A stretch of 63,978 bases of DNA from Octopus sinensis (Eukaryota), in assembly GCF_006345805.1 (NCBI RefSeq), contig NW_021832000.1, positions 1 to 63,978 on the forward strand, given 5' to 3'. The notes beneath the pieces are model-generated. The model was not told the DNA's origin. It made no database searches and worked only from the letters and a program-made list of their open reading frames with translations. The translations under genes were made by a program, and so were the position numbers. This document shows positions 53 to 58,800 of this stretch, piece by piece; the first letter of the stretch is position 1, and the number at the start of each line of letters is the position of its first letter.

Positions 53-103
53 CATATTGTTTTGAACAGAGTTGGGTCCTTTTGGCAAAATCTCTTCCAT
101 AAT
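53..103 (-). CDS. Candidate 51-nt phase 1-1 cassette exon DYGRDFAKRTQLCSKQY
   Basis: TATTCATTTCAG acceptor, GTGAGT donor, no stop. Confidence 0.65.
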
Positions 104-589
104 CTGAAATGAATATTTTCACGTATTACATTTTATTGTATGATTTGGTTATATTTCTTAATCTGTATTTTGGTATTCTTCGACATTTATATCTTAAATG
201 GTCAACGGATGATCACTATATCTTTGGTGAGTAACTCATACTGTTTAACACAATATTTAGAGCCTTCAAAATATGCGCAAATTTCCTATCTATCCCCTCT
301 GTATTCAGATATCCAGCATAATTTAACAAGATTGAAATTATTTAATTACCTCTTTAGAACAGTATTCTTCCTCTATGCCTTTCCTTTCATATCTCTCTGT
401 ATTTGAGCGAGTTTAATGTACAGATATAAGAGAGGAAAACTAAACTAATGAGAAACAGTGTTATAAAGAGATAATTACGTGAAGTAATTACAATATTGTT
501 AAATTATGTCGGATGTCACATTACAGTGCGGTGATATATATATATCAGTAATCAAGCGATCAGAGAGAATTCTGAGCGACATCATCACC

Positions 590-995
590 AAATGCAGATG
601 GAAGAAGTGTTGTATTACTCTTGAATAGTGTCCTGATGTCATATGGGCCGCATATCTTTTGTATCTTTTCGGAGAGGCCTTTCACATAAGGTAGACAGAC
701 TGTGGACAGTTTATTGGTTTCATCCTCTCTTTTCTTCATAATTGGAGTGGATAGTATGTTTTTGGGTAGTTGTTGCTTAATAGATTGTTACTTAGCGTGA
801 TCATTTCTTCGTTGTGGGTTTCACGATCGCTACTTATATTCTTTACTCGATGTTTTAGGCACTGAGCAATCCCTCTCTTTACACTGTAAGGATGGTGGGA
901 AATGAAGTTGATGTATCGTCCGGTAAAGGTCGGCTTGCGGTATACGGATGTTCTGAATCCATACTTGGTGCGTGTTATTAATACATCCAGGTTCG
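590..995 (-). mobile_element. Penelope-like element RT C-terminal fragment (copies at ~8305-8710 and ~18385-18785)
   Basis: LDVLITRT..FRTSVYRKPTFTGRYINFISHHPYSVKRGI...NNYP and LPYVKGLSEKIQK, typical of PLE RT. Confidence 0.85.
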
Positions 996-1676
996 AAATT
1001 TCCCTAAGGCACCTGATGAAGGCTGGAGGGTATATCAGACTAAACGTTGTGTTAACAACAAACAAGATGAGTTCTCATCTTTTAAATATCGAACTAGGCT
1101 CTCTAAAATGCCTTGTATCCTTTCTTCCTTCAATACGTGTGTCATTTCTTTGAATGCATTGGCTTGCTTTGCATCATACAGTCAGTATCTATATTTATGA
1201 ATGGGAAAGAGGCAATGGTTGTCTGTGCAACAGACGAAAGTCTTCCACTTGGATAAAGACAATGTTTAATGGATGTAGTGATAGATTTACAAGTCTTGAA
1301 GAAAGACAAGTGTTCAAACTCGGAATGCATTTCCTTGTACGTGAACAAGATAATGAGTGGCACCTGCTTGAATAACAACAACAATAACCAGTCAGTAAAC
1401 GTAGTAAAATGTAAAACAAACAAAATCATTAACTCACCTGAAAAAGTATAACATATTATATATCCCCGTTCAAAAAGAGAATATTCAATCTATTGTTTCT
1501 TCTAAATTATCCATTTTACCAACCATGTTAACTTGAGTGGATAATTTATGAAATGTCAGTAATATCGATCCCTTTAATATAATCAGTTTACAGCTAAAAC
1601 GTGCAATTGGAATTTAGGAATAGAACATATTCTTAATAATTCCTACGAACAAAATAGCTCAGGTAAACCTATTTAC

Positions 1677-1702
1677 CTGCTTGTTCTGAGACTTGGGAAA
1701 CC
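1677..1702 (-). other. 26-nt truncated cassette paralog GFPKSQNKQ (phase 1 to 0)
   Basis: TATTTATTTCAG acceptor, CAG|GTAAAT donor. Confidence 0.4.
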
Positions 1703-1807
1703 CTGAAATAAATATTTCAAGGTTTTTCAAATTTATAATAAAATATTTTAAATCTAGATATTAATAATATATATTTTATTATTGTGGGACTTTCTGATCA
1801 TCAATGG

Positions 1808-2150
1808 GCAGCCTGTGTATGGACAGCTGTGTATGCTACATAGTAGGGAAATGTATGTAGTGAACACAGAGGACGTGTAAAGGCTTGAACAAAATGGAAC
1901 CAGCATGCTCCACTGGATGGTCACTGTCAGTGTGCAGGTATAAAATGCTGACATGTTTTAAGATAAAAATCGAGAGTTATCACATGTATGTAGTACGCAA
2001 GACAGACGACTGTGCTAGTATGACCCTGTGATATGTATGAATAAGATCAGCTGTATAAAGAGCACCGATCTGTAAATGTGGAGAGAACCTCAAGAAAACT
2101 GGAAGGAAGTGTTGAGAAATGAGCTTCAGATCTTGAACCTGAGAGTCAAT
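1808..2150 (+). mobile_element. Degenerate RTE LINE 3' coding fragment (copies at ~9523-9868 and ~19599-19945)
   Basis: Aligns by eye to 39010-39360 of the RTE in this window (ATGCTACAT..AGT, CCAGCATGCTCC..TG, CAAGA.AGACGA.TG.GCT). Confidence 0.7.
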
Positions 2151-2699
2151 CGGTAGAAAAGCGGGTATCTTTAAGAGACATATGTTCCTCGACCAATGGG
2201 GGTGGATAGTATCTCAGAATAGGACGTGTCTTGGGTAGAGACCGCCCATCAAATACATTTTAGAAAGAACATCAGACGATAAATGATGAGGATGTATTCG
2301 ATTGTATTGTTATATGCAGCTAGTATTTATCTTGAAAGAGAAAGAGACAATGGTTTCTCAGCAGAAAACCAAAGTCATTACTTCGATAAAGACAATGCTT
2401 AGTGGATGGAACGATAAATTTAATGTTGTATCTAAGAAAAGACAACAGCAAAAATAAAAGTTTAAAACATTGTTAAAAGATATGAAGAGATAATATTTTG
2501 TAACAGCAACATCCGACATAATTCGTGATATAACAACTCAAATCTTCCTAATTTAACTAAAATATTGCACACAGTTCATACAACACCATTTCCAAAACGC
2601 TTCCGTCCCATTAATTGTCGATAAACACAGAAATAGCTACACCAGTCGTCTCGTTAGCTGAAAACACTGATATACACCAGTGGAGCTTAGTACTATAGA

Positions 2700-2911
2700 G
2701 AGAAATCCGTGATTATCTGGCAATGTTTAACTTGACCATTACAAAAGTCGTTAACACTAGAAGGAGATCAGATGTACAATTACAAACTGCACGGTGGAGA
2801 GATATCATATTGTACCCTGACTGCTACCACAATCCGCCGTACACAACAAAACGCAGCATTTTAGCAGTTCCTTGTGTGATGATTAACAAAATGAAAGAAT
2901 GGAATATCTGA
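2700..2911 (+). mobile_element. Possible very degenerate Penelope-like RT remnant (copy at ~10415-10626)
   Basis: LAMFNLTITK...SDV... and CYHNPPYTTKRSI loosely resemble FLDILI...TDIYYKPT...S.HP..TKRSI. Confidence 0.3.
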
Positions 2912-3369
2912 CGGGTTAGATCTGTATTTTTCACTGAGGCTATGACCAGCTACCTCTGGTTATAGATCTATTAAAGGGCTGAGTAGAAATTAAACTACAT
3001 GTGGTAAGATTTCTCTCTCCGACACATAATAGACATAAAAAATTGAGATAAGCCCGCCCCAGCACCAATTTTATCAGAGAATTAAGTAAATAACAATCGA
3101 ATAAACAAAACAGAAACGACTTTTTACTATTTTAGATAAATCAATTAATTACTGCACACCAATTTCTAATTACTGGACTAACTTCAAACAATCTGACACC
3201 GCGACATCAGGTATCCTGAAACATTGTACACTTGCACAAAACCTTATTAACTACATTTAACTGGTCATCTACATACTATTGCATAAACATATCCGAAATG
3301 ATACACAATAACTGACAATTAAGCATATATAAGCATGACGCAAATATAGATCAAACTGGAAGCATTGAA

Positions 3370-4470
3370 TCTGACGTTTGCCAGGAAGTTTCGAATATTC
3401 TCTTTCTTTTAACCCATTCCCATGTTTTCGTTTTCATCTTAATGCCCTTACAATTATTGGACAAACAGGCAGCGCACCAATGTCCAAAACTTTTATAAGT
3501 TTAAACCTAAACGTATGCATAGTTTCTCCTGCTACTTTGAACTTCACTTTGTTCTGCTGATCTTCCACAAATAACAGATTGTATTATTTATTTGCTTCAA
3601 GTCAAATTCTTCACAAAGTAATCAGTCCACCCAGGCTATCCAGAAATATTTGCATAACATTTTGGTCTCTACAAGTATTTTTATGTCATCCATGAATGTC
3701 TTGTCTGGTGCTTTCACTTGGGTCATTTCTTTTGAGCAGACTACTGATCTAAGTAACATCTCGAAACTGAAGGATTAATATTGTGCACCCTGCTCCAATT
3801 CCGATGACAGTCCCTGTAAAATGGTTTGTAATGAGCTGCCTTTTGAAATTGTTATAACAGCTCATCATCAGACCTTAAAATTGCCCCAGTATGTAAAAGA
3901 AGTTCATTGATTTCATCAATAAATTGTATGGTCCACAACCATATGCTTTAGAGCGATCGAGCCATACAACATTCCAATTACTTCAATTCTTCTTTTTGTG
4001 TTGATCCCAGTTTGACATTTCATGTCCTACAAACCAAGAAAGTCAGGGATTTCCAGTCATCTGAACACTTTCCATCACATATCAATTATTTTGTAGGTGT
4101 ATAGGTGATCTCTTAGCATGTACATCCACGTAAAGCTTGTCATTAAGGATTGAAACTAATTTCAATTGGCCAATTGATTGTGATTCAGATTCCTTTCAAA
4201 AGTGAACTCTTTCTGCCTTATATCAGTCATAAATCCCTTCAATTTTATACCACAAACCCTTACTATTATATAATGCTTATATAATGCAGTTTTTGCTCTT
4301 GCCCCCCTTCTTGCTGCAATCTCTCAGTTAAAAGTTTAATTCCTGACTTTCTTTGAGAATTTATTAGAAAGACATCAACGTTTCTTTTGCTTGTACCACA
4401 ATAAGATGCACCTAGGACACTTTATCAAGTGCTTTTAGGCAAGTATACCCTCATATAAAACCTAGAATGG
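3370..4470 (-). mobile_element. HERO/NeSL-like (RLE clade) non-LTR RT fossil; paralogs at ~11085-12250, ~14380-15535, ~21070-22000
   Basis: VVWLDRSKAYG near 3930-3970 and FMDD at 3685-3696; many stops and frameshifts. Confidence 0.75.
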
Positions 4471-5157
4471 TTAATTGAGATGTGTCTTCTATCCGTTCAT
4501 GACGTGGGAGCCTGGAAATCAGACGATATAGGATGAAGAGATTGTCAATTATTGTATAGTATCTTGCAACCAGTTTCTGTTTCGAAGTAAGAAATATAGA
4601 CAACAACTATCACAGAAGTAAGTTGGATAAGGGCAATGTGTAGCGTATGTAATAAAATATCTGTGAAATAAAACAGACTGCTTATACTTGAAATACCTTT
4701 CAAAGTACTTTTTTAGAAATATCAGCCAAAATAACAACATTAATCTATCATCAGCAAACATAATATAAAATGTAAAACAAAGAGAAATGTCATTAACACG
4801 AATGTTTATCGCTAAACAACTACAAATATTAGTTTTCTCTTCCAAAGTAAAATATTAAATCTATTGTCTTCGAAGTTATCCCTTTTACAAACCATGCTCA
4901 CCACATCGGATATTTTGTGAAATTACAATAATATCGATATGTTTTATTGGGTAAACTGGCAATATGACCATTCCGAAATATAATAATATCTGTTTCAACA
5001 CACGACTTCACATAAAAAATCTTGCACAACAAATATTTAATAGAATTATTATGCATCAAACTTTTCAAATGCAAAATTTGGATTGGAAGATGTTGTCAGT
5101 CATTCAGTAAAGTTAAAATTTACAGTAATCGATAAGGTAATGATATTTTATACTCAT

Positions 5158-5220
5158 CATCAAATGATTCTGTTTCAAGCATAGGAAAGTTTGGAGACAG
5201 TGTTGTTTGCGACTATGTGT
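5158..5220 (-). pseudogene. 63-nt dead cassette paralog
   Basis: Acceptor CCG, donor ATGAGT, in-frame TAG; paralog of 12921-12983. Confidence 0.5.
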
Positions 5221-6063
5221 CGGAAAAATATATTTTCAAGTTTTACATTTTACACTATAATATGATTATATCTATCAATCAAAAATATTCCATTACCGTA
5301 AGATATCTTTATTTTTAATGGTCAACGGCTGACCACTATGCTTTTGGTCAGCACGCTTTACAGATTCAATATAACAAAACTCTTTATTAAGAGCCACCAA
5401 AATATTAACTAATTTCGTTCTGAAGAAGAACTGACTTGGACAGTGACAACTCATCTAGTCCATAGGAGCCTGGAAATCTGACGATAAATGTCGGGGTTGT
5501 TGCCTGTGATTCACTTGCATCGTGCAACCTGTATCTTTCATGAAGTAAGAAAGGCAGATACCGATTATCACAGTAGCAAAGAAATGTTTTCTATTCGGGA
5601 AAAGACAATGTGTAGTGGATGTAATAATAAAATTACTACCAGTGTAACAAAACAGAGAGTTTACACTTGGAACGCATTTCATTGCAATTCTTCTAGATTA
5701 TGAGAAGCATCCGTTTAAATAGCAACAATAACAATAATAACCTTGAAGTAAACATGATAAAAAGTGTGACAAAAACAGCTGTCATTAACTCTAAATTTAT
5801 ATTCCTAAACAAATTAGCTTAGTTCTCTCTTTCTCAAAACTATACAAAATATATTCCCGTTTCAATTTTCCATTTTACAAACCACTCTAACCTCGTTGGA
5901 TATTTTGTGAACTTTCAGTAATATCGATATATTGAATAGAATTATTATACAACATTTCGAATCTAATTAGGATAGAATCTGTACTCAGTCGTTCTAAAAT
6001 ACAAAAGCTCGGGAGAAGGTGAAATGTATAGAAATCGGTAAATTAATATCATTTCATACTTAC

Positions 6064-6150
6064 AATCATTCTCTGATTGGTCTACTCCAGAATACGATTT
6101 AAAACCGGAATCGGTACTGGCTCCCGATACCATACTTCCTGTTGAATGTT
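6064..6150 (-). CDS. Candidate 87-nt phase 1-1 cassette exon EHSTGSMVSGASTDSGFKSYSGVDQSEND
   Basis: TATTCATTTCAG acceptor, GTAAGT donor, no stop. Confidence 0.7.
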
Positions 6151-6599
6151 CTGAAATGAATATTTTCAAGATTTGCGTTGTATAGGATGATGTGCTTATC
6201 TTTGTTAATAATCTATATTTCACAATTGTGACATATTTCTATTTTCAATTGTCAGCGACTGACCACTATGCTTTTGGTCAGCACGTTTTACAGTTTCAAT
6301 ATAACAAAACTCTATATTAAGAGCAACCAAAATATTAACTAATTTCCTATCTATACTCTTTGTATTCAGATATCAAATATAATTCAACAATATTGTAATT
6401 ATTTATTTCATCATTGTCTCTTTATAACAGAATTTTGCTTTTAGTTTTCTCTTTCCTTCCGTATTTCTCTGATTCTCAGGGTGTTTAAGGCACATGTATA
6501 AAGAGAAGATAACTCAACTACTGAAAAACACTGCTATAAAGAGATAATTACGTGAAGTAATTGCAATATTGTTAAATTATGTTGGATGTCACAATACAT

Positions 6600-6900
6600 T
6601 GCGTTGATATATGAAGGTTGGTCTCAAAACGAAGCCGGATTGGACCAATCGCATAAACCTCTTCAACAACACCTTTTTACCTGCAATTTACAACAGGTGT
6701 GAAAGCTGGTACACGACGAAGAGGGAGGGTGTGAGTCTGATAATGGCCCAAAACACAATCGAAAAATCGAGGTTTGGGAGTGTTGCTAAATTTGCACATC
6801 AAGAGTGAGGCGATCAGAGAGAAATCCGGTGTGAGAGACATCATCACTAAAAACTTATGCCAAAATTTCAGATAGGACAGGTAGCCAGCTCCCTGAAAAT
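6600..6900 (+). mobile_element. Degenerate RTE-type LINE 3' fragment (copies at ~13430-13730 and ~16680-16980)
   Basis: LFNNTFLPAIYNRCESW.T...SEAIREKSGVRDII resembles the RTE C-terminus (LP.L.YG.E.W...IR....V.DI). Confidence 0.65.
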
Positions 6901-7768
6901 ATTTAGAGATGCACAGTTGTTGAGAGTTATATACACGAGCAGAGGAGGTCACTGAGAGCGAATCCAAAAGTGAGTATTTGACGAAATACGACATCCTACG
7001 TAGGTGAGAAGGTCAAGATGAAGACAGAAGTGGAGGGTGCACTGTGATCTCTGGTGTCGTCAATACACTCAGTCAGTCGATCATGGTCAAGGTGGTATTT
7101 CTGTCACATCTATGACATAGCGTTTTCACCTCTACCATAGTAAACCTCACGAACCAAACTTCTCGTTTTCTGCTCAACTCAAATGCCAAGCAAGTGGATA
7201 ACCATATATCGATCTTCAAAAACTGGTTGCACCACTTATAGTTAGAAAAAAAGCACCAGCTCTCTCTGTGAAACATTGATTCTGGAAATTTTTGATTTTA
7301 ACTGCCCACATCAACCTGCGTAGTTGTGACGCATCTATGACATGGCGTTTTCACATCTACAGTAGAACTCACTAATCAAACAATCTTATAATTTTCTGCT
7401 CACTTCCAGTGTCAACAAAGTTAATCATCAAATATCTATCTTCAAATTCATTTCACTTTAGACTACAAACACCTACTCTCTCTCTGTGAAACATTGCTGC
7501 TGGTAATCTTTAATTTTAACTGCCCACATCTACGTTCACCAGAATGTCATCTCATGTAGAAAATATTTGAAGACCCCTGAATGAAATAGATTTCATCCCA
7601 AGTGAGTAATGATTAATTCTACACAGGCGTAGAGGAAAGAAATATCAGATGTCCCCCAAAACTGTGAACACCTAATGTACTTCATACAAGGTCATGGTAA
7701 ATTTACTATCAGTGAAATATGACAGAATCTTTATGGAAATCGATGAGGTAATATAATTTTAAACTCAC

Positions 7769-7819
7769 CATATTGTTTTGAACTGAGTTGGGTCCTTTTG
7801 GCAAAATCTCTTCCATAAT
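7769..7819 (-). CDS. Candidate 51-nt phase 1-1 cassette exon DYGRDFAKRTQLSSKQY
   Basis: TATTCATTTCAG acceptor, GTGAGT donor, no stop. Confidence 0.65.
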
Positions 7820-9391
7820 CTGAAATGAATATTTTCACGTATTACATTTTATTGTATGATTTGGTTATATTTCTTAATCTGTATTTTGGTATTCTTCGAC
7901 ATTTATATCTTAAATGGTCAACGGATGATCACTATATCTTTGGTGAGTAACTCATACTGTTTAACACAATATTTAGAGCCTTCAAAATATGCGCAAATTT
8001 CCTATCTATCCCCTCTGTATTCAGATATCCAGCATAATTTAACAAGATTGAAATTATTTAATTACCTCTTTAGAACAGTATTCTTCCTCTATGCCTTTCC
8101 TTTCATATCTCTCTGTATTTGAGCGAGTTTAATGTACAGATATAAGAGAGGAAAACTAAACTAATGAGAAACAGTGTTATAAAGAGATAATTACGTGAAG
8201 TAATTACAATATTGTTAAATTATGTCGGATGTCACATTACAGTGCGGTGATATATATATATCAGTAATCAAGCGATCAGAGAGAATTCTGAGCGACATCA
8301 TCACCAAATGCAGATGGAAGAAGTGTTGTATTACTCTTGAATAGTGTCCTGATGTCATATGGGCCGCATATCTTTTGTATCTTTTCGGAGAGGCCTTTCA
8401 CATAAGGTAGACAGACTGTGGACAGTTTATTGGTTTCATCCTCTCTTTTCTTCATAATTGGAGTGGATAGTATGTTTTTGGGTAGTTGTTGCTTAATAGA
8501 TTGTTACTTAGCGTGATCATTTCTTCGTTGTGGGTTTCACGATCGCTACTTATATTCTTTACTCGATGTTTTAGGCACTGAGCAATCCCTCTCTTTACAC
8601 TGTAAGGATGGTGGGAAATGAAGTTGATGTATCGTCCGGTAAAGGTCGGCTTGCGGTATACGGATGTTCTGAATCCATACTTGGTGCGTGTTATTAATAC
8701 CTCCAGGTTCGAAATTTCCTCAAGACACCTGATGAAGGCTGGAGGGTATATCAGCCTAAACGTTGTGTTAACAACAAACAAGATGAGTTCTCATCTTTTA
8801 AATATCGAACTAGGCTCTCTAAAATGCCTTGTATCCTTTCTTCCTTCAATACGTGTGTCATTTCTTTGAATGCATTGGCTTGCTTTGCATCATACAGTCA
8901 GTATCTATATTTATGAATGGAAAGTGGCGATGGTAGTCTGTGCAACAGACGAAAATCTTCCACTTGGATAAAGACAATGTTTAATGGATGTAATGATAGA
9001 TTTACAAGTCTTGAAGAAAGACAAGTATTCAAACTCGGAATGCATTTCCTTGTACGTGAACAAGATAATGAGTGGCACCTGCTTGAATAACAACAACAAT
9101 AACCAGTCAGTAAACGTAGTAAAATGTAAAGCAAGCAAAATATTTAACTCACCTGAAAAAGAATAACATATTATATATCCCCGTTCAAAAAGAGAATATT
9201 CAATCTATTGTTTCTTCTAAATTATCCATTTTACCAACCATGTTAACTTGAGTGGATAATTTATGAAATGTCAGTAATATCGATCCCTTTAATATAATCA
9301 GTTTACAGCTAAAACATGCAATTGAAATTTATGAATAGAACACATTCTTAATAATTGTGACAAACAAAATAGCTCAGGTAAACCTATTTAC

Positions 9392-9417
9392 CTGCTTGTT
9401 CTGAGACTTGGGAAACC
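9392..9417 (-). other. 26-nt truncated cassette paralog GFPKSQNKQ (phase 1 to 0)
   Basis: TATTTATTTCAG acceptor, CAG|GTAAAT donor. Confidence 0.4.
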
Positions 9418-12400
9418 CTGAAATAAATATTTCAAGGTTTTTAAAATTTATTATAAAATATTTTAAATCTAGATATTAATAATATATATTTTATTATTGT
9501 GGGACTTTCTGATCACCAATGGGCAGCCTGTGTATGAACAGCTGTGTAAGCTACATAGTAGTGAAATGTATGTAGTGAACACAGAAGACGTTTAAAGGCG
9601 TGAACAAAATGGAACCAGCACGCTCCACTGGATGGTGACTGTCAGCGTGCAGGTATAAAATGCTGACACGTTTTAAGATAAAAGTCGAGAGTTATCACAT
9701 GTATGTAGTACGCAAGACAGACGACTGTGCTAGTATGGCCATGTGATATGTATGAATAAGATCAGCTGTATAAAGAGCACCGATCTGTAAATGTGGAGAG
9801 AACCTCAAGAAAAATGGAAGGAAGTGTTGAGAAATGAGCTTCAGATCTTGAACCTGAGAGTCAATCGGTAGAAAAGCGGGTATCTTTAAGAGACATATGT
9901 CCCTCAACCAATGGGGGTGGATAGTATCTCAGAATAGGACGTGTCTTGTGTAGAGACCGCCCATCCAATGCATTTTAGACAGAAAATCAGACGATAAATG
10001 ATGAGGATGTATTCGATTGTATTGTTATATGCAGCTAGTATTTATCTTGAAAGAGTGAGAGACAATGGTTTCTCAGCAGAAAACCAAAGTCATTACTTTG
10101 ATAAATACAATGCTTAGTAGATGGAACGATAAATTTAATGTTGTATCTAAGAAAAGACAACAGCAAAAATAAAAGTTTAAAACATTGTTAAAAGATATGA
10201 AGAGATAATATTTTTTAACAGCAACATCCGACATAATTCGTGATATAACAACTCAAATCTTCCTAATTTAACTAAAATATTGCACACAGTTCCTACAACA
10301 CCATTTCCAAAACGCTTCCGTCCCATTAATTGTCGATAAACACAGAAATAGCTACACCAGTCGTCCCGCAAGCTGAAAACACTGATATACACCAGTGGAG
10401 CTTAGTACTATAGAGAGAAATCCGTGGTATTCTGGCAATGTTTAATTTGACCATTACAAAAGTCGTTAACACTAGAAGGAGTTCAGATGTACAATTACAA
10501 ACTGCACGGTGGAGAGATATCATATTCTACCCTGACTGCTACCACAATCCGCCGTACACAACAAAACGAGACATTTTAGCAGTTCCTTGTGTGATGATTA
10601 ACAAAATGAAAGAATGGAATATCTGACGGGTTAGATCTGTATTTTTCACTGAGGCTATGACCAGCTACCTCTGGTTATAGATCTATTAAAGGGCTGAGTA
10701 GAAATTAAACTACTTGTGGTAAGAATTCTCTCTCCGACACAAAATAGACATACAAAATTGAGATAAGCCCGCCCCAGCACCAATTTTATCAGAGAATTAT
10801 GTAAATAACTATCGAATAAACAAAACATAAACGACTTTTTACTATTTTAGATAAATCAATTTCTGCACACCAATTTCTAATTGCTGGACTAACTTCAAAC
10901 AATCTGACACCGCGACATCAAGTATCCTGAAACATTGTACACTTGCACAAAACCTTATTAACTACATTTTACTGGTCATCTACATACTATTGCATAAACA
11001 TATCCGAAATGATACATAATAACTGACAATCAAGCATATATAAGCATGACGCAAATATAGATCAAACTGGAAGCATTGAATCTTACGTTTGCCAGCAAGT
11101 TTCGAATATTCTCTTTCTTTTAACCCATTCCCATGTTTTCGTTTTCATCTTAATGCCCTTACAATTATTGGACAAAGAGGCAGCGCAACACTATCTGAAA
11201 CTTTTATAAGTTTTTCCCTGAATGTATGCATGTATGCAGTGCCTCAGCATGGCCACAGCTCATGAGCTGAAACTAGAATCAATCAATCAATCAATCATAG
11301 TTTCTCCAGCTACTTTGAACTTCACTTTGTTCTGCTGATCTTCCACAAATAACAGATTGTATTATTTATTTGCTTCAAGTCAAATTCTTGACAAAGTAAT
11401 AAGTCCACCCAGGCTATCCAGAAATATTTGCATAACATTTTGGTCTCTACATAGTATTTTTATGTCATCCATGAATGTCTTGTCTTGTTCTTTCACTTGG
11501 GTCATTTCTTCTGAGCAGACTACTGATCTAGGTAACATCTCGAAACTGAAGGATTAATATTGTGCACCCTGCTCCAATTCCGATGACAGTCCCTGTAAAA
11601 TGGTTTGTAATGAGCTGCCTTTTGAAATTGTTATACCAGCTCATCATCAGACCTTCACACTGCCCCAGTATGTCAAAGAAGTTCATTGATTTCATCAATA
11701 AATTGTATGGTACCCAACCATATGCTTTAGAGCGATCAAGGCATACAACATTCCAATTACTTCAATTCTTCTTTGTGTGTTGATCCCAGTTTGACATCTC
11801 ATGTCCTTCAAACCAAGAAAGTCAGCGGATTCCAGTCATCTGCACACTTTCCATCACATATCAATTATTTTGTAGTTGTATAGGTGATCTCTTAGCATGT
11901 ACATCCACGTAAAGCATGTCATTAAGGATTGAAACTAATTTCAATTGGCCAATTAATTGTGATTCAGATTCCTTTCATACGTGAACTCAGTCATAAATCC
12001 CTTCAATTTTATACTACAAACCCTTACTATTATATAATGCTTATATAATGCAGTTTTTGCTCTTGCCTCCTTCTTGCTGCAATCTCTCAGTTAAAAGTTT
12101 AATTCCTGACTTTCTTTGGGGTTTTATTAGAAATACATCAACGTTTCTTTTGCTTGTACCACAATAAAATGCACCTAGGACACTTTATCAAATGGTTTGT
12201 TTTAGGAAATTATACCCTCATATAAAACCTAGAATGGTTAACTGAGATTTGTCTGCTATCCGATCAAGAGGTGGGAGCATGGAAATCAGACGATAAAGGA
12301 TGAAGAGATAGTCAATTATTGTATAGTATCTTGCAACCAGTATCTGTTTTGAAGTAAGAGATATAGAACAACTATCACAGAAGTAAGTTGGATAAGGGCA

Positions 12401-12920
12401 ATGTTTAGCGGATGTAATGAAATATCTGTGAAATAAATCAGACTGCTTATACTTGAAATACATTTCAAAGTACTTTTTTAGAAATATCAGCCAAAATAAC
12501 AATATTAATCTATCAGCAAACATAATATAAAATGTAAAACAAAGAGAAATGTCATTAACACGAATGTTTATCGCTAAACAACTACAAATATTAGTTTTCT
12601 CTTCCAAAGTGAAATATAAAATCTATTGTCTTCCAAGTTATCCATTTTACAAACCATGCTCACCACATCGGATATTTTGTGAAATTACAATAATATCGAT
12701 ATGTTTTATTGGCTAAACTGGCAAAATGACCATTCCGAAATATAATAATATCTGTTTCAACACACGACTTCACATAAAAAAATCTTGCACAACAAATATT
12801 TAATAGAATTATTATGCATCAAACTTTTCAAATGCAAAATGTGGATTGGAAGATGTTGTCAGTCATTCAGTAAAGTTAAAATTTACAGTAATCGATAAGG
12901 TAATGATATTTTATACTCAT

Positions 12921-12983
12921 GATCAAATGATTCTGTTTCAAGCATAGGAAAGTTTGGAGACAGTATTGTTTGCGACTATGTGT
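12921..12983 (-). pseudogene. 63-nt dead cassette paralog
   Basis: Homologous flanks; acceptor CCG, donor ATGAGT, in-frame TAG. Confidence 0.5.
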
Positions 12984-15900
12984 CGGAAAAATATTTCAAG
13001 TTTTACATTTTACACTATAATGTGATTATATCTATTAATCAAAAATATTCCATTACCGTAAGATATCTTTATGTTCAATTGTCAACGGCTGACCACTATG
13101 CTTTTGGTCAGCACGCTTTACAGATTCATTACAACAAAACTCTATATTAAGATCCACCAAAATATTAACTAATTTCCTATCTTTACTCTCTGTATTCAGA
13201 CATCAAATATAATTTAACAATATTGTAATTATTTAATTTCATTGTCTCTTTATAACAATATTTTGCTTTTAGTTTTCTCTTTCCTTCCGTATTTCTCTGA
13301 TTTTCAGGGAGTTTAAGGCACAGGTATAAAGAGAGGATAACTCAACTACTGAAAAACAGTGCTATAAAGAGATAATTACGTGAAGTATTTGCAATATTTT
13401 TCAATTATGTTGGATGTCACAGTACATTGCATAGATATGTGAAAGTTGGTCTCAAAACGAAGCTGGATTCGACCAATCGCATAAATCTCTTCAACGACAC
13501 CTATTTACCTGCAATTTACAACAGGTGTGAAAGCTGGTACACAATGAAGAGGGAGGAAGTGAGTCTGATAATGGCCCAAAGCACATTCGAAAAATCGAGG
13601 TTATGGAATGTTGCTAAATTTGCACATCAGGAGTGAGGCGATCATAGAGAAATCAGGTGTGAGAGACATCATCACTAAAAACTTATGCCAAAATTTCAGA
13701 TGGGACAGGTAGCCAGCTCACTGAAATTATTTAGGGATGCACAGTTGTTGAGAGTTATATACGCGAGCAGAGGAGGTCACTGAGAGCGAATCCAAAAGTG
13801 AGTGTTTGATGAAATACGACATGCTACGTAGGTGAGAAGGTCAAGATGAAGACAGAAGTGGAGGATGCACTGTGTTCTCTGGTGTCGTCAATACACTCAG
13901 TCAGTCGACCATGGTCAAGGTGGTATTTCTGTCACATCTATGACATAGCGTTTTCACATCTACAGTAGAACTCACTAATCAAACATTCTTATAATTTTCT
14001 GCTCACTTCCAATGTCAACAAGGTTAATCATCAAATATCGATCTTCAAATACATTTCACACCACTTCATTTTAGACAACTAGCACCTACTCTCTGCGTGA
14101 AACATTGCTGCTGGTAATCTTTAAGTTTAACCGCTCTCACCAACGTTCGCCAGAATGTCTTCTGATACAGAAGATGTGTGAAACCTCCTTACGGAAACAG
14201 TTTTCTTTCCAGATGAGTAATAATTTATTCTACTAAGTTGTTGGCGAAATTGGTATCAGGTACCCCAAAAACAACACCGCCGTTTATCTACACATCATTG
14301 CATAAAATGCATCCGAAATGGTACATAATAGAACTGATTCTCAAAAATACATACGCAAGCCATGCTAGAAACATCATATACTATATTTACTTTGAGGTTT
14401 TCACAAATCTATTGCTTATAAACCATTATCGATTTTTACCATGATCTCAATATCTCTATTCTTACTAGACAATAGGGAAGCCTACCAGCATACGAAATAC
14501 TTACAAATTTGTCATTAAAATATGTCATGGTTTCTCTTGATACGTTGTATATCACTTGTTTCTGCTGCCCTTTGACAATTAAAAAACCGTATTATTTATT
14601 TGCATTAAGTCTTAATCTCGACCAAGGATTAAATCCATTCCGGTTGTCCAAAACTATTAGCATATTCTTTTGATCTCTTTCCCTTATTTGTATGTCATCG
14701 ATGATGTTTCTTCAGCCATATCTGCTGAGCAGTCTGCTGATCTGAGTAACATCTCATTAACAAAGACTGACATTTTGCATCCTACTCTAGTTTCACGCCA
14801 ATCCTACTCTCTGTATAATATGTGTGTAACGAATAGCATTTGGAAATTGTTAAACCAACTCTTCGTCATATTTTTAAAATCCTCCTGTATGTAAACGAAG
14901 GCCATTGCTTTTCTCGATGGTTTATGTTGTTCACATCCCTAAGCATTAGACTGATCCAACCATACAACATTCAAATCACTTCTATTTTTCTATGTGTGTT
15001 GGTCCCACTTTTACAAGGCATGTCCCAAACACTCAGGATGTCAACGGATTCTTTTGCATTCACACTTTCAGTCTCATTAGAGTTATTTTGTCGATGTGTA
15101 GTTGATCTCTGACCATGGAAATCTTAGCAATCATAATTGCAATCGGTGCCAACTTGCGAATTAGTTTCGCTTTAGCTTAAATTGTACGCAAAATCTTTCT
15201 CTCTTCCTCCAGCCATCAATCACACCAACTTTATACCCGAAAGTTCCACCATTATGTGATGCCTACAACAAAACCTTGTACAAGACTTGAAACTTTCTAA
15301 TGTACAGCCTCACCTTGCCTTATACCCAAAGATAACTACTTCTTTCCTGCTGCAATCCTCAAGCTCAAATTCTTCGTTCCTGATTTTGTTGGACATTTTC
15401 TTAGAGAGACGATAATACTTCACATGCTTTGCAACAATAAAATGCACCTAGAACCCTTTAGAAAGTGGTTGGTGTCAGGAATGGCATAGCACTACATGAA
15501 AGCAGTGATGTTTAAGTGAGATATGTTCCTCTACGAATGAAGAAGGGAAGTAGTTCTGAAGAAGAACTGACTTGGACAGCGACAACTCATCTAGTCCATA
15601 GGAGCCTGGAAATCTAACGATAAGTGTCGGGGTTGTTACCTGTGATTCACTTGCATCGTGCAACCTGTATCTTTCATGAAGTAAGAAAGGCAGATACCGA
15701 TTATCTCAGTAGCAAAGAAATGTTTTCTATTCGGGAAAAGACAATGTGTAGTGGATGTAATAATGAAATTACTACCAGTGTAACATAACAGAGAGTTTAC
15801 ACTTGGAACGCATTTCATTGTAATTCTTCTAGATTATGAGAAGCATCCGTTTAAATAACAACAATAACAATAATAACCTACGAGTGAATGTGGTAAAAAA

Positions 15901-16204
15901 TGTGACAAAAACGGCTGTCATTAACTCTAAATTTATGTTCCTAAACAAATTAGCTTAGTTCTATCTTTCTCAAAACTATACAAAATATATTCCCGTTTCA
16001 ATTTTCCATGTTAAAAACCACTCTAACTTCGTTGGATATTTTGTGAAATTTCAATAATATCGATATATTGAATAGAATTATTATACAACAAACCTTTCGA
16101 ATCTAATTAGGGATAGAATCTGTACTCAGTCGTTCTAACATACAAAAGCTCGAGATAAATTGAAATGTATAGAAATCGGTAACTTAATATTATTTCATAC
16201 TTAC

Positions 16205-16291
16205 ATCCTTCCTCTGATTCATCTACTCCAGAAGATGATTGTAAACCGGAATCGGTACTGGCTCCGGGTACTATACTTGCTGTTGAATGTT
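16205..16291 (-). CDS. Candidate 87-nt phase 1-1 cassette exon EHSTASIVPGASTDSGLQSSSGVDESEEG
   Basis: TATTCATTTCAG acceptor, GTAAGT donor, no stop. Confidence 0.7.
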
Positions 16292-17842
16292 CTGAAATGA
16301 ATATTTTCAAGATTTGCGTTGTATAGCATGATGTGCTTATCTTTGTTAATAATCTATATTTCACTATTGTGACTTATTTCTATTGTCAATGGCTATATAA
16401 AGGGCCACCAAAATATTAACTAATTTCCTCTCTTTACTCTCTGTATTCAGATATCAAATATAATTTAACAATATTGTAATTATTTAATTTCATTGTCTCT
16501 TTATAACAATATTTTGCTTTTAGTTTTCTCTTTCCTTCCGTATTTCTCTGATTTTCAGGAAGTTTAAGGCACAGGTATAAAAAGAGGATAACTCAACTAC
16601 TGAAAAACATTGCTATAAATAGATAATTACGTGAAGTAATTGCAATATTGTTAAATTATGTTGGATGTCACAATACATTGCATTGATATATGAAAGTTGG
16701 TCTCAAAACGAAGTCGGATTGAACCAATCACATAAACCTCTTCAACAACACCTATTTACCGGCAATTTACAACAGGTGTGAAAGCTGGTACACAACGAAG
16801 ATGGAGGATGTGAGTCTGATAATGGCCCAAAGCACAATCGAAAAATCGAGGTTTGGGAGTGTTGCTAAATTTGCACATCAAGAGTGAGGCGATCAGAGGG
16901 AAATCAGGTGTGAGAGACATCATCACTAAAAACTTATGACAAAATTTCAGATGGGACAGGTAACCAGCTCACTGAAAATATTTAGAGATGCACAGTTGTT
17001 GAGAGTTATATACACGAGCAGAGGAGGTCACTGAGAGCGAATCCAAAAGTGAGTGTTTGACGAAATACGACATGCGACATAGGTGAGAAGGTCAAGATGA
17101 AGACAGAAGTGGAGGGTGCACTGTAAACTCTGGTGACTTCAATACACTCAGTCAGTCGATCATGGTCAAGGTGGTATTTCTGTCACATTTATGACATAAC
17201 GTTTTCACCTCTACCGTAGTAAACCTCACAAACCAAACTTCTCGTTTTCTGCTCAACTCCAATGTCAAGCAAGTGGATAACCATATATCTATCTACAAAA
17301 ACTGGTCACACCACTTACCGTTAGACAGAAAGTACCTGCTCTCTGTGAAATATTGCTTCTGGTAATCTTTGATTTTAACTGCCCACATCAACGTGCGTAT
17401 TTGTGACGCATCTATGACATGGCGTTTTCACATCTACAGTAGAACTCACTAATCAAACAATCTTATAATTTTCTGCTCACTTCCAGTGTCAACAAGGTTA
17501 ATCATCAAATATCTGTCTTCAAATTCCTTTCACTTTAGATACAAACACCTACTCGCTGTGTGAAACATTGCTGCTGGTAATCTTTAATTCTAACTGCCCA
17601 CATCTACGTTCACCAGAATGTCATCTCATGTAGAAAATATTTGAAGACCCCTGAATGACATAGATTTCATCCCAAGTGAGGAATAATTAATTCTACACAG
17701 GTCTAGGAGAAAGAAATATCAGATGTCCCCCAAAACTGTTACCACCTAATTTACTTCATATAAGTTCATGGTAAATTTACTATCAGTGAAACATGACGGA
17801 ATCTTTATGGAAATCGATGAGGTAATATAATTTTAAACTCAT

Positions 17843-17893
17843 CATAATGTTTTAAACTGGGTTGGGTCCTTTTGGCGAAATCTCTTCCATAAT
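17843..17893 (-). pseudogene. 51-nt cassette paralog DYGRDFAKRTQPSLKHY with dead donor
   Basis: Acceptor intact; donor reads ATGAGT where the paralogs at 53 and 7769 have GTGAGT. Confidence 0.6.
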
Positions 17894-19467
17894 CTGAAAT
17901 GAATATTTTCACGTATTACATTTTATTGTATGATTTGGTTTTAGTTCTTAATCTATATTTTGATATTATTCGACATTTTTTTCTTAAATGGTCAACGGAT
18001 GACCACTATATCTTTGGTGAGCAACTCATACTGTTTAACACATTAATTAGAGCCTTCAAAATATGCGCAGATTTCCTATCTATCCCCTCTGTATTCAGAT
18101 ATCCAGCATGTTTTAACAAGATTGAAATTATTTAATTACCTCTTTATAACAGTATTCTTCCTCTATGCCTTTCCTTTCATATCTCTCTGCATTTGAGTGA
18201 GTTTAAAGTACAGATATAAGAGAAGAAAACTAAACTAATGAGAAACAGTGTTATAAAGAGATAATTACGTGAAGTAATTGCAATATTGTTTAATTATGTC
18301 GGATGTCACATTACAGTTCGGTGATATATATATCTGTAATCAAGCGATCAGAGAGAATTCTGGTGTGAGCGACATCATCACCAAATGCTGAAGGAAGAAG
18401 TGTGGTTTTACTCTTGAATAGTGTCCCGATGTCATATGGGCCGCATATCTTTTGTATCTTTTCGGAGAGGCCTTTCACATAAGGTAGACAGACTGGACAG
18501 TTTATTGGTTTCATCCTCTCTTTTCTTCATAATTGGAGTGGATAGTATGTGTTTGGGTAGTTGTTGCTTAATAGATTGTTACTTAGCGTGATCATTTCTT
18601 CGTTGTGGGTTTCACGATCGCTACTTATATTCTTTACTCGATGTTTTAGGCACTGAGCAATCCCTCTCTTTACACTGTAAGGATGGTGGGAAATGAAGTT
18701 GATGTATCGTCCGGTAAAGGTCGGCTTGCGGTATACGGATGTTCTGAATCCATACTTGGTGCGTGTTATTAATACCTCCAGGTTCGAAATTTCCTCAAGA
18801 CACCTGATGAAGGCTGGAGGGTATATCAGCCTAAACGTTGTGTTAACAACAAACAAGATGAGTTCTCGTCTCTTAAATATTGAACTAGGCTATCTAAAAT
18901 GTTCAGTATCCTGTCTTCCTTCAATACGTGTGTCATTTCTTTGAATGCATTGGCTTGCATTGCATCATACAGTCAGTATCTATATTTATGAATGGGAAAG
19001 TGGCGATGGTAGTCTGTGCAACAGACGAAAATCTTCCACTTGGACAAAGACAATCTTTAATGGATGTAGTGATAGATTTCCTCGTCGTGAAGAAAGAAAA
19101 GTGTTCAAACTTGGAATGCATTTCCTTGTAAGTGAACCAGATAATGAGAGGCACCTGCTTGAATAGCAACAACAATAACCAGTCAGTAAACGTAGTAAAA
19201 TGTAAAACAAACAAAATCTTTTACTCACGTGATAAAGTATAACATATTATATATCCCCGTTCAAAAAGAGAATATTCAATCTATTGTGTCTTCCAAATTA
19301 TCCATTTTACCAAACATGTTAACTTGAGTGGTTAAATTATGAAATGTCAGTAATATCGATCCCTTTAATTTAATTAGTTTACAGTTAAAACGTGCAATTG
19401 GAATTTAGGAATAGAACATATTCTTAATAATTCCTACGAACAAAATAGCTCAGGTAAACCTATTTAC

Positions 19468-19493
19468 CTGCTTGCTCTGAGATTTGGGAAACA
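19468..19493 (-). other. 26-nt truncated cassette paralog VFPKSQSKQ (phase 1 to 0)
   Basis: Same TATTTATTTCAG acceptor context, CAG|GTAAAT donor. Confidence 0.4.
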
Positions 19494-22400
19494 CTGAAAT
19501 AAATATTTCAAGGTTTTTCAAATTTATAATAAAATATTTTAAATCTAGATATTAATAATATATATTTTATTATTGTGGGACTTTCTGATCACCAATGGGC
19601 AGCCTGTGTATGGACAGCTGTGTAAGCTACATAGTAGTGAAATGTATGTAGTGAACACAGAGGACGTGTAAAGGCTTGAACAAAATGGAACCAGCATGCT
19701 CCACTGGATGGTCACTGTCAGTGTGCAGGTATAAAATGCTGACACGTTTTAAGATAAAAGTCGAGAGTTATCACATGTATGTAGTACGCAAGACAGACGA
19801 CTGTGCTAGTATGACCATGTGATGTGTATGAATAAGATCAGCTGTATAAAGAGCACCGATCTGTAAATGTGGAGAGAACCTCAAGAAAACTGGAAGGAAG
19901 TGTTGAGAAATGAGCTTCAGATCTTGAACCTGAGAGTCAATCGGTATGTAAAAGAAGTTTATTGATTTCATCAATAATTTGTTTGGTACACAAGACGTCC
20001 CTGAAACCTGACACCTCTGCTCCTCTTATTGACAGCGGGAAAAAAAACCTTTGACAACTTGTTTAGTTTTGGCCACCAGCTCAACTTTGGTATTGCAGTC
20101 AGAGCGAATGGTATATTTCTCAACCGTGTCCCATACAAACTAATCAATGAGATTTCAATCAGGGAAACTAGGAAGTTTACAAATGGGTCCACTAAAACTG
20201 CATAAGTACTCAGACAACCACTTCAGATGTATGGTAAGGAGCCGAATCCTACTGCCACGCATAAGGCCTTGCAACTGTGTCTAAATACAGGAAATCCCTT
20301 TCCAACCTGCAGTTCCCTTCCAATCCTCCATGTCAGCTAACCTGTTTATAATTGCCAGACTATCCTTTCGCCAATGGTCAACTGGTGACCCCTAAGGGTT
20401 TGTTTAACATTTTTATACTTTCTACAGTGTTACTATACCCTAGCTCAATGTTTAGGTCTACAACGAAATAGACTAACAAACCTTATTCTACTCTGTTTAT
20501 TGAGACATACTACATAATCTAACAATTCAACAATAATCTCATATAATTATCACTTGATAACGCTCTTCCTTTCTAAGTTGAGCATTTCTTTTCTTATATC
20601 TGTGACAGTATTGATGAGATGGCATTTTCTCCCTCACATCTAGATATCGCTTTCTGGCATTCTTTTATTCATCCACTTAATTCCGTTATCAACCAAGTCC
20701 GTCAACAAAACTCGAACCGCAAACACATGATACCCCACTCCAAGTAGGATCATACACCTGCTCTCTTTCTTAAACATTCATGCTGCAGTTAACCAGAATG
20801 TCATCTGATTAAGGAAATACTTGAAGACATTTGAATGTCATACGTCTTCCTTAATGAAGCAGTTTTCTTTCCGCATGAGCGAAGATAAATTCTACACAGT
20901 AGAGCAGAAGATTAATAACAACTGTCCTAAAAAAACTATACACTTGTAACACATGTTATTATCTATATACAACTTGTCATCGACATATTATTATGATGAA
21001 TATATCTGAAATGGTACATTGCAAATGATTCTCAAGTATATATAAGAAAGACGGAGACACAGATCAAACAGCAAGCCACAAATCTGTTATTTGCCCAGAT
21101 ATTTTGGTTTTTCTCCCGCTTCAAACTCTTCCTTGGTTTGTGCCATGATCTCAATGCGTCTACTCTTCACAGACAACAAACTAGCGTACCATCCTCTAAA
21201 TCATTTTACAACTTTCTTTTTAATCCTTCACAAAGAATACCCAGCTATTTTGAAATTTACTTCCTCCTGCTAACATTAAACAAACGACAGAATGAATTCT
21301 TTGCTTCATACCCGATTCTTGACCAAGAAATTAGTTCGTCCATACCATCCAGAAATATTTACATAACTTTTTGGTCTCTTGTTAGTATTCTTAGGTAATC
21401 AATTAATGCCTTCTTCGGTGATGTCAATAGAGCCCTATCTTCTGATCAATCTGCTGATCTAAGTAACATCCCCATAATAAGCACAAACCAAATGAATGAT
21501 ATGCAAAGTATAGCTATTCCAGTTTCAAGACGAAGCCAGCCTCTTGTAAAACACTCTTGTAAAATGTCATTTTTAAGATTCCTATAGCAACTCCTCATCA
21601 TATCTGTTATCTTCTCCCATATATAAAATAACTCTGTTGCTTCCTCAATTATTTCTGTGATACAGAATATGAAGTATTAGCCAGATCAAGTCATACAACA
21701 TGCAAATCCATTTTGTTGTTTTTGTGTTAAGTCCTATAGACAATATTTTGTAGATATAGAGTTGGTCTCTCAGCAAGTACACCTAAGCAAATCTTGGTAT
21801 TTATACTCAAAGATTGAAATTGTTCTAAAGTGATCGATCAGCTTTGTATTAGCGTCCATTGGTAAGTAATCTCCTTCTGCCTTGAACCAATCATCAACCG
21901 ATCCACTTTTTTGCTACAACTCTCAAAGTAATAGGTAAAGATTGTGATATAATTGTGGATAAAACTTGTATACTTTGTATGATAGTCCATTTCCTCGTTG
22001 GATGCCTTTTGCTCTTGTTTTCTTCATACAACTATCTGCATGATTCTTGTTGAAATCATTGTTGATTCCTAGCTTCATTCCGTGTTTGAAACCGTCCATC
22101 ACTGGGAACTACTGATCTTACTCTGGGTCAATGTAGGGCTCCTGTATATACCTGTCCAATTCATCTTCTGTAACTTATACACTACTTCACTTAGCATCTG
22201 CAAATAGAGTCTATTAACCTCATAACGTTACTGAAGGAGATTTTCTCTAATCCATTTATCATCATTCCCTCTATCAGCATGTCTGATATTTCTTTTTAAA
22301 GTAAGAATAAAGGTTTAAGATGTTGAACAGATGATCATTTTTCTAATGGTTATAGCATGATCAAATGCACTTAGGACCATTGTCCGTTCTAATTCCAGTG

Positions 22401-22765: not shown

Positions 22766-22816
22766 CAACTGGCTCTACCACTCTCTGGGATGCTTTCCCT
22801 TTAAACTTTGGACGCA
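22766..22816 (-). CDS. Candidate 51-nt phase 1-1 cassette exon VRPKFKGKASQRVVEPV
   Basis: TGTTTATTTCAG acceptor, GTGAGT donor, no stop. Confidence 0.7.
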
Positions 22817-25343: not shown

Positions 25344-25394
25344 CTACAGGTTCAGCCAATGTCTGTGTTTCCTTGACTTCAAATGTTCGATTCA
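25344..25394 (-). CDS. Candidate 51-nt phase 1-1 cassette exon VNRTFEVKETQTLAEPV
   Basis: TATTTATTTCAG acceptor, GTGAGT donor, no stop. Confidence 0.7.
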
Positions 25395-29380: not shown

Positions 29381-29431
29381 CAGGTGGTTCTGTCAACATC
29401 TGGACTTCCGGCTTTGACGACTTTGGACCCT
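29381..29431 (-). CDS. Candidate 51-nt phase 1-1 cassette exon EGPKSSKPEVQMLTEPP
   Basis: TTGTTTATTTCAG acceptor, GTGAGT donor, open in the phase left by the RING exon. Confidence 0.7.

Positions 29432-32029: not shown

Positions 32030-58800
<26,771 letters not shown>

Follow-up and report, generated by a model that had tools for sequence, protein, structure and literature searches.

Linker cassette exons of an octopus ankyrin-RING gene have, in some copies, diverged faster than the introns around them

Introduction

Two 87-nt minus-strand exons in a 63,978-nt contig of Octopus sinensis (the window), at 6064..6150 and 16205..16291, were flagged in a first-pass annotation as having diverged faster than their own introns, raising the question of whether these cassettes are selected for change or whether gene conversion has homogenised only the introns. 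Young duplicates of venom and MHC genes show the same contrast, with coding sequence evolving more quickly than the introns next to it, and MHC genes also provide a precedent for intron homogenisation. Unlike venom and MHC genes, whose products are secreted folded peptides or peptide-binding grooves, the octopus units are exons repeated inside the low-complexity linker of one cytoplasmic protein. In the accessible part of one MHC study, introns were not analysed (PMC12674619).

The flagged pair is a weak case on its own

Recounting reproduced 14/87 differing nucleotides, 9/28 differing full codons, intact splice sites (the minus-strand acceptor ends in ATTTCAG and the donor reads GTAAGT, phase 1-1) and flank differences of 3/90 nt before the acceptor and 13/240 after the donor, plus two indels, at 5954 and 5969; both exons are open only in the phase 1-1 frame. 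The 6064 copy lies in a tandem block with a three-exon unit (5417..9870) that is 94.7% identical to 15553-19946, 232 of 4383 columns being different (5.3%), and a further partial copy of the block occupies 1-3520. The naive binomial p for 14/87 is 1.9e-4; intron divergence is overdispersed (mean 4.4, variance 8.2 and maximum 12 across 48 non-overlapping windows), and the negative-binomial p is 0.0075, uncorrected for having picked this exon and this pair out of several. The sliding-window comparison ended in a tie, with 10 of 3857 intronic windows (one patch, starts 7202-7211) also reaching 14/87, and dN (0.187) and dS (0.194) gave a dN/dS of 0.96 with 3-4 silent changes. Because dN/dS is close to 1 and an intron window reaches the same count, the flagged pair alone makes a weak case, and selection for change, as first proposed, is not shown by it.

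The pair might then be a chance peak in a noisy alignment, leaving only the A17248 and C9449 variants to be explained. The uncorrected p value and the intronic tie fit this reading, as does the decomposition of the 14 differences into two branches, with the C12623 copy intermediate (9 and 5). We regard it as improbable, since the 6064 copy carries 7 private changes in 87 nt against 13/550 in its flanks (p 0.012) and the same exon shows a far larger excess on another branch. The exon excess is beyond doubt only once the other copies are added.

Both exons belong to one ankyrin-RING gene

The two exons belong to one gene, annotated in RefSeq O. sinensis as E3 ubiquitin-protein ligase MIB2-like (XP_036354791.1 / XP_029654765.1), whose models in the window include both, and both are present in the RefSeq models P0001/P0040. 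The encoded protein runs from ankyrins through one RING to a tail of phase-1 mini-exons, all on the minus strand: a first coding exon (58723..58800, ATG at 58800), ankyrin exons at 49669..49826, 48499..48544, 46062..46216, 45045..45081 (short), 41325..41534 and 35788..35963 (the last of the region), a RING exon (32108..32250, Pfam zf-C3HC4_3), and 51-nt linker exons at 29381..29431, 25344..25394 (with KETQT, an LC8-type motif) and 22766..22816 (with a degenerate motif). The 16205 copy of the 87-nt exon, first in the mRNA, is 1 nt from its C9449 paralogue and has 1 private change; the second, 6064 copy is Ser/Gly-rich and lacks a TQT motif. A 51-nt phase-1 YGRDF-type exon lies upstream of the 6064 exon (7769..7819), another (17843..17893) has a dead donor (GT to AT) and is skipped in RefSeq models, and a third (53..103) ends 52 nt from the contig end. 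By comparison with the intact C9449 and C12623 copies, a 72-nt TQT exon is broken after 25 nt and runs into a stop, forming the last exon of P0001 (1659..1702), with further copies of this remnant at 9374-9417 and 19450-19493; given this stop and the contig end, the window's gene may be incomplete.

Pfam places Ank families and the RING (residues 287-330) in P0001, and tail residues 336-474 have pLDDT <50, so the linker is predicted to be disordered. Paralogues bearing the 87-nt exon end in a propeller-like region rather than a Death domain: tblastn with 11 family Death regions gave no match at E <0.17 downstream of the 87-nt exon in the stretches examined of C9449, C12623, C12277 and the window. 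The C-terminus of P0038 matched NHL at 0.89 in an atlas search, which we treat as a lead only, and the stretches fetched upstream of four other propeller loci held no more 87-nt copies.

The name MIB2-like is an automatic one. MIB1 and MIB2 carry an N-terminal Mib-Herc2/ZZ/Mib-Herc2 array and Mib-repeat, then ankyrins and two or three C-terminal RINGs. In the octopus protein, too, a C3HC4_3 RING follows an ankyrin array, but it is not a true Mind bomb: neither the Pfam search of P0001 and five paralogues (E <=0.05) nor the precomputed domains of 38 octopus matches contained Mib-Herc2, ZZ or Mib-repeat modules, P0001 has a single RING stretch, its tail is predicted to be disordered, and the paralogues have a Death domain or NHL-like propeller beyond the mini-exon linker. 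NACHT and NB-ARC were absent from both sets, and FIIND and CARD from the Pfam search of the six proteins. A toxin-like gene was rejected because the exons belong to an intracellular ankyrin-RING model; unlike the paralogues of toxin families, with which the first-pass annotation compared them, these are exons repeated in tandem inside a single intracellular protein.

Contigs of two studies (X4, X6) join 6150 to 7769 over a GT-AG intron, and other joints connect 1702 to 16208 (X4) and 16287 to 17852 (X20); the runs behind these contigs are presumed, as a guess, to be RNA, and the joints are not copy-specific. None of the listed datasets containing the stretch is recorded as RNA, which counts neither for nor against. 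With an open frame in 8/8 copies of the 87-nt exon, the RefSeq models and the splicing of this exon type in RNA-type contigs support the proposal that the cassettes are translated.

Some copies carry an excess of change confined to the exon

Some exon copies have changed up to ~10-fold faster than the surrounding introns. The most extreme, in C12277 (A17248), differs from all others at 27-33 of 87 nt while its flanks differ by 3-8%; its excess ends at both exon borders, with 23/87 private changes in the exon against 13/550 in the flanks (p 5e-13). Across five distinct copies of the 87-nt exon, 37/87 sites vary compared with 61/566 in the flanks, including 22/51 0-fold but 1/8 4-fold sites, and the neighbouring 51-nt YGRDF-type exon is also fast-changing, with 17/51 variable sites in four copies against 46/418 in the flanks. 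The acceleration is episodic, an exon-limited excess appearing on 2 of 5 branches of distinct copies; three of the five 87-nt copies show none (1/261 vs 17/1650), and once A17248 is removed the exon evolves just 1.7 times as fast as its flanks (p 0.05-0.1).

The A17248 type recurs with 4 differences in 162 nt in contig X3, which bears another organism label, and in X4 and X20 its splice sites form head-to-tail joints. When the loose end of X20 is placed in register by hand, 7/10 codons depart from those of the 16205 copy, every one a replacement.

A neutral mosaic offers a possible, though less probable, account of these data, in which the linker exons are weakly constrained and conversion or unequal crossing-over sets old divergent exons in homogenised introns, divergence then reflecting age. 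Conversion, raised as an alternative from the outset, is real at this locus: informative sites change partners along the unit, making the flanks a mosaic, and the flagged block pair contains a 379-nt stretch of near-zero difference (8386-8764) besides the intronic 14/87 patch. Because conversion yields equally high intronic peaks, a single exon-versus-intron contrast is unreliable in such arrays. Neutral tracts, however, should not stop at both exon borders, and the 13 codons at which A17248 and the 16205 copy encode the same amino acid contain no silent change. No closer donor for the A17248 exon was found in the assembly, the best others being 75-76% identical, and conversion from the 51-nt or dead exons was rejected (local alignment z <=1.7, no 22-mer donor in the examined contigs).

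Internal controls bear on the same alternative. A splice-dead paralogous mini-exon with acceptor CCG (12921..12983, minus strand; second copy at ~5158-5220) differs at 0-6/60 positions, the intron rate, with no excess, which counts against a neutral mosaic and led us to reject general hypermutability of GC-richer exon-like DNA. The TQT exons E72 (0-2/72) and TLTL-type (0-2/51) are at or below their own flanks. On the other side, the KETQT exon has a dN/dS of 0.3-0.5, yet a silent rate 4.5 times that of its flanks (p 7e-7), and the third, SSML-type TQT exon differs at 8-9/51 in two pairs against 6-8/200 in upstream flanks; because of these two exons, exon-over-intron divergence is evidently possible without amino-acid selection.

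Exon-targeted mutation, for example with A-to-I edited mRNA serving as template for the genomic copy, would raise divergence without selection and would confine the excess to spliced exons, as seen. We consider it very improbable, and rejected its editing-templated form, since A-to-G accounts for only 6/38 changes in the 87-nt exon with no bias and all four bases raised, the expressed-type TQT exons E72 and TLTL, like most codons of the RING, show no raised divergence, and changes in the ankyrin exon cluster on binding-face codons.

Codon tests give moderate support for selection on the exons

The codon models were home-written and applied to few codons (28 + 16), and recombination can inflate such tests; the estimates below are to be read accordingly. 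Across five copies, the 87-nt exon alone gave dN/dS 2.0-2.3 (p 0.11-0.17 against dN/dS = 1), and the 51-nt neighbour, in four copies, dN/dS above 1 (p 0.019-0.047). Jointly, the two exons gave a common dN/dS of 2.84 on the flank tree (p 0.016) and 3.05 in a second test (chi-square p 0.010; bootstrap 22/539 by likelihood ratio and 2/539 by value). A raised rate with dN/dS = 1, as a neutral mosaic would have it, was rejected for both exons jointly (p 0.004-0.04), and a model in which the silent rate equals the intron rate was not (p 0.34). With the silent rate fixed at the intron rate, replacement ran at 4.35 times the neutral rate in the 87-nt exon (p 5e-11) and 5.3 times in the 51-nt exon (p 3e-8); A17248 and the C9449 variant account for most of this excess. 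Third codon positions were not depleted of change (19/21/16 by position, p 0.27), which, like the dN/dS of the flagged pair, speaks for a neutral mosaic. The original proposal of selection for change is moderately supported across copies for the two exons together.

The ankyrin face is variable and the linker rich in TQT motifs

The family comprises 141 candidate ankyrin-exon matches, of which 40 were scored. In 28 copies, the ankyrin exon corresponding to 46062..46216, hypervariable at binding-face codons, diverged by 12.7% compared with 3.7% in its flanks, and M2a was preferred over M1a with 2dL of 111-200 on three trees. Codons 6, 9, 14, 17, 18, 20, 41, 48 and 51 were selected on all three trees, and codons 6, 7, 9, 17 and 18 align with positions varying between DARPin repeats. 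These codon patterns indicate strong selection at DARPin-type binding positions.

Downstream of the RING, 39/51 family proteins (isoforms included) carry a loose TQT motif and 8 the strict one, and TQT motifs number 74 in the 6501 aa downstream of the RING but 0 in the 10580 aa upstream of it; the KETQT of P0001 fits the loose LC8 pattern, not the strict one. Most family linkers thus have TQT, which both fast exon types lack. An LC8 gene is present in the genome. LC8/DYNLL clients are described, in the part of the source consulted, as carrying [D/S]K-x-[T/V/I]-Q-[T/V]-[D/E]-type motifs in a disordered region (PMC3078936), which the predicted-disordered octopus linker resembles; it differs from the clients so described in that each exon has about one motif and the set changes through exon duplication and splicing, and its LC8 binding is putative. 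In the main text of the open-access literature we found no account of these linker exons, their TQT motifs or their evolution.

Discussion

We favour, as likely (probability about 0.55), diversifying selection in bursts combined with conversion between units. A symmetric cassette in the predicted-disordered linker was duplicated in tandem within one ankyrin-RING gene, after which diversifying selection would have acted on some copies in bursts, and exchange by recombination among the units would have held the introns on either side alike. The protein would sense variable ligands inside the cell through its ankyrin face and act as a ubiquitin ligase, and LC8 may join two chains at the TQT exons. 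The TQT-less, Ser/Gly-rich exons may form an exposed stretch read by an outside or fast-changing partner (a protease, kinase or binder), which would be why new exon versions are favoured, and the linker would gain further variety from the splicing of symmetric exons.

To our knowledge, cephalopods have no adaptive immunity, and descriptions of diversified intracellular receptors in them are scarce. The octopus family looks like one of variable intracellular sensors, and its large size, selected binding faces, swappable C-terminal modules and mini-exon linker make it a concrete candidate for such receptors. A second arms race may act on the motif-less exons that burst after intragenic duplication, not on the conserved TQT modules. 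In arrays of this kind, a single exon-versus-intron contrast is unreliable evidence.

Two known systems come close, as far as the sections consulted describe them. In fungal NLRs with hypervariable ANK/TPR/WD repeats, the concave ankyrin face is positively selected and the repeats undergo shuffling and concerted evolution (PMC4986451). The octopus ankyrin binding face is likewise positively selected, but unlike in the fungal proteins so described there is no NACHT or NB-ARC domain, the ankyrins lie at the N-terminus and are encoded by several exons, and the linker forms a second fast region. The tripwire regions of CARD8/NLRP1 are disordered and rapidly evolving, in a family with death-fold domains (PMC10249858). 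The octopus segment is also predicted to be disordered and evolves fast, and its family uses death-fold domains; it differs from CARD8/NLRP1, as described there, in lacking a FIIND, in being internal and built of cassette exons, and in that exon-bearing paralogues end propeller-like, and tripwire cleavage is hypothetical.

A more elaborate version, which we hold to be doubtful, would have these octopus sensors present two variable surfaces, a DARPin-like ankyrin library and a splice-shuffled bait linker, with LC8 clamping chains via TQT and the motif-less hypervariable exons serving as tripwires cut by pathogen proteases, so that the C-terminal module would come apart from the ankyrin-RING half. 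A Leu-Gln-Ser stretch of the 16205 copy, presumably similar to a nidoviral 3C-like protease site, is gone from the 6064 and A17248 copies.

Divergence of the duplicated 87-nt exons relative to their introns

The paired exons at 6064-6150 and 16205-16291 lie on the minus strand in phase 1-1, and the counts of the first-pass annotation were reproduced, with 14 of 87 nucleotides and 9 of 28 codons differing, intact splice sites, and flanks differing at 3/90 and 13/240 positions plus two indels. The pair sits within a 4.4-kb duplication with a background divergence of 5.3% (232/4383), over which its excess has a naive binomial p of 1.9e-4, but the intron windows are overdispersed and the negative-binomial p is 0.0075. 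The exon was expected to lie outside the intronic range, which it does not, as 10 of 3857 sliding windows, all in an intron patch at ~7202-7300, likewise attain 14/87. Chance is judged an improbable explanation for this pair. With dN at 0.187 and dS at 0.194, the pair in isolation does not show selection. Within the same 5%-diverged duplication, ~380 nt (8386-8764 versus about 18460-18840) are almost without differences, likely a recent conversion tract.

Additional copies of the fast exons

A genome search (40 scored matches) revealed eight close copies of the 87-nt exon on four contigs, of which five entered the tests; C12277:5282, C12277:15438 and C12623:255129 were excluded, their exons being identical to another copy. 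The divergent copy ending at C12277:17248, termed A17248, differs from every other copy at 27-33 of 87 nt while its flanks differ by 3-8%, and this excess is confined by the exon borders at start and end. Private changes numbered 23/87 in the exon versus 13/550 in the flanks for A17248, 7/87 versus 13/550 for the 6064 copy (p 0.012), and 1/261 versus 17/1650 for the remaining three copies, and the acceleration is therefore episodic. Both fast copies are additional copies in genes that have at least two exons of this type.

No closer donor for the A17248 exon was found in the assembly (six matches, the others at 75-76%). The A17248 type is no product of misassembly, since a sequencing-run contig under another organism label (X3) spans it with 4 differences over 162 nt, and in contigs of two further runs (X4 and X20) it is joined at its own splice sites, the acceptor used lying 9 nt upstream. 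A single base change at C12277:17249-17257 (L032:7249-7257) makes this acceptor 9 nt 5' of the exon, and the X4 and X20 contigs that use it join two 96-nt exons head to tail. The 51-nt neighbour exon (six copies, four used, with window 103 and C12277:6947 left out as near-identical) is, like the 87-nt exon, fast, with variable sites at 17/51 versus 46/418 in its flanks.

Selection tests and control exons

Home-written MG94-type codon models were used rather than PAML. On flank trees, the 87-nt exon gave a silent factor of 2.1 and a dN/dS of 2.0 (p 0.17 against 1), and the 51-nt exon gave p 0.019 against a dN/dS of 1. Selection for change, proposed earlier from the pair alone, gained moderate support from the copies together, as both exons jointly gave a dN/dS of 2.84 (p 0.016) with a silent factor of 1.6, not different from 1. 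On exon trees, dN/dS was 2.28 (p 0.11) for the 87-nt exon and 7.5 (p 0.047) for the 51-nt exon, with a common value of 3.05 (chi-square p 0.010; bootstrap 22/539 by likelihood ratio and 2/539 by value). One X20 variant has at least five differences, all five listed falling in replaced codons, and a second, a loose sequence end in X20 read by hand, has 7 of 10 codons replaced and zero silent changes; both point in the same direction as selection.

Against selection, removing A17248 leaves the 87-nt exon at only 1.7 times its flanks (p 0.05-0.1), third codon positions show no depletion (19/21/16), and the units are mosaic at their informative sites. Two controls also speak against it: the KETQT exon (19 of 30 fetched loci; 10 distant and one dead-donor locus left out) has a dN/dS of 0.3-0.5, yet its silent sites change at 4.5 times the rate of its flanks, and the SSML-type exon exists in two versions 8-11 nt apart, in similar flanks for some pairs. 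In this octopus ankyrin-RING family, old exon versions do become decoupled from their introns. A neutral mosaic of such versions is a possible though less probable account, set against the joint dN/dS above 1. Taking these observations together, we favour selection plus conversion as the explanation of the fast exons, at a probability of roughly 0.55.

Mutation targeted to exons appears very unlikely, with no A-to-G bias seen among the changes and exons of the same subfamily at or below flank level, namely the intact 72-nt exon (four copies, 0-2/72 differences) and the TLTL-type exon (0-2/51). A splice-dead exon (six copies) differs at 0-6/60, similar to its flanks, and the RING exon (24/30 loci) runs overall near the intron rate with a few codons variable. 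Exon-over-intron acceleration is a known pattern; no description of the family or its linker was found in the open-access literature.

The gene carrying the exons

The window is one entire contig of the 2.72-Gb assembly. Its gene model, the RefSeq O. sinensis 'MIB2-like' protein P0001, was retrieved with the ankyrin exon 41325-41534 as query and runs from 58800 down to 1659 through ankyrins, a single C3HC4_3 RING and short phase-1 exons including the duplicated pair. AlphaFold2 folds residues 1-335 and leaves 336-474 at a pLDDT under 50. Use of this exon type in mRNA is supported by a joint 6150-7769 across a GT-AG intron in contigs of two studies whose runs we guess to be RNA; in contigs of such runs the 87-nt exon type is spliced to both neighbours, through joints that are not copy-specific.

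The repeated unit is made up of the 51-nt and 87-nt exons together with a 72-nt exon remnant, which in the window is broken after 25 nt and then reads to a stop; contigs C9449 and C12623 have the 72-nt exon whole, and there the gene continues via TQT exons to a C-terminus of the P0038 type, for which Atlas suggests NHL at 0.89, a lead only. In other members of the family, the protein closes with a Death domain. The downstream part of the window's gene falls past the contig end. Its ankyrin-region introns hold a 5.3-kb CT-rich tract (49860-55150) and a 0.9-kb ATC-rich repeat tract (48570-49500), and an intron between two ankyrin exons holds endonuclease and reverse-transcriptase reading frames with in-frame stops (36244-39430, plus strand), which we take from their motifs to be a LINE-like element.

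Ankyrin variation, TQT motifs and a proposed mechanism

For the ankyrin exon 46062-46216, 30 of 40 listed loci were retrieved, and 28 of these entered the analysis after removal of a frameshifted copy and a stop-bearing one. Divergence was 12.7% in the exon and 3.7% in the flanks, the exon exceeding the flank in 377 of 378 pairs, and a selected site class was strongly favoured (2dL 111, 170 and 200 on exon, flank and star trees) at a dN/dS of 5.9-7.2. By alignment, the selected codons include positions varying between DARPin repeats, which form the concave binding face (PMC8229355 and PMC8683736), and they parallel the fungal NLR ankyrins (PMC4986451).

TQT-type motifs follow the RING in 39 of 51 family proteins, isoforms counted (74 in 6501 aa post-RING versus 0 in 10580 aa pre-RING), and fit the LC8/DYNLL motif (PMC3078936), making this a putative binding site recognized from sequence. 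The fast 87-nt and 51-nt types lack it. Linker exons carry about one such motif apiece, as in the P0005 cluster (12 isoforms) and at window 25344-25394, and RefSeq isoforms vary in the number of TQT exons included. Zinc-ligand cysteines are lost in the RINGs of some paralogues (P0016, P0018 and L129), and part of the family may therefore be catalytically dead.

We propose that variable ankyrins would detect ligands, the RING would ubiquitinate and LC8 would pair two chains via the TQT exons, with either a propeller or a Death domain acting downstream. With symmetric exons, unequal crossing-over could lengthen the linker and splicing could vary it with the frame kept; TQT exons would be constrained by their motif, and the Ser/Gly-rich motif-less exons would be exposed and pushed toward new sequence in some copies. 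Such driven change would fit a site recognised by an enzyme of a pathogen or by a partner that is itself changing fast. The nearest working model is the CARD8 tripwire (PMC10249858), with cleavage here putative; the family differs from it in architecture and does not qualify as a member of that class.

Subfamilies and possible exon-block shuffling

Contig C12277 (stretches L031-L034) is 98.9% identical to the window over a 16.9-kb tail, and its two ankyrin exons have just 48-52% protein identity to the window's, which makes it a chimera of two subfamilies and suggests exon-block shuffling. Six contigs (C9449, C12623, C10426, C8846, C8321 and C9206) carry close copies of one subfamily, whose linker leads into a long propeller-like C-terminus, not a Death domain, and several of these show frame breaks as assembled. 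A pair of EGF-like exons at C12623:181100-181860 comes from an unrelated adjacent gene.
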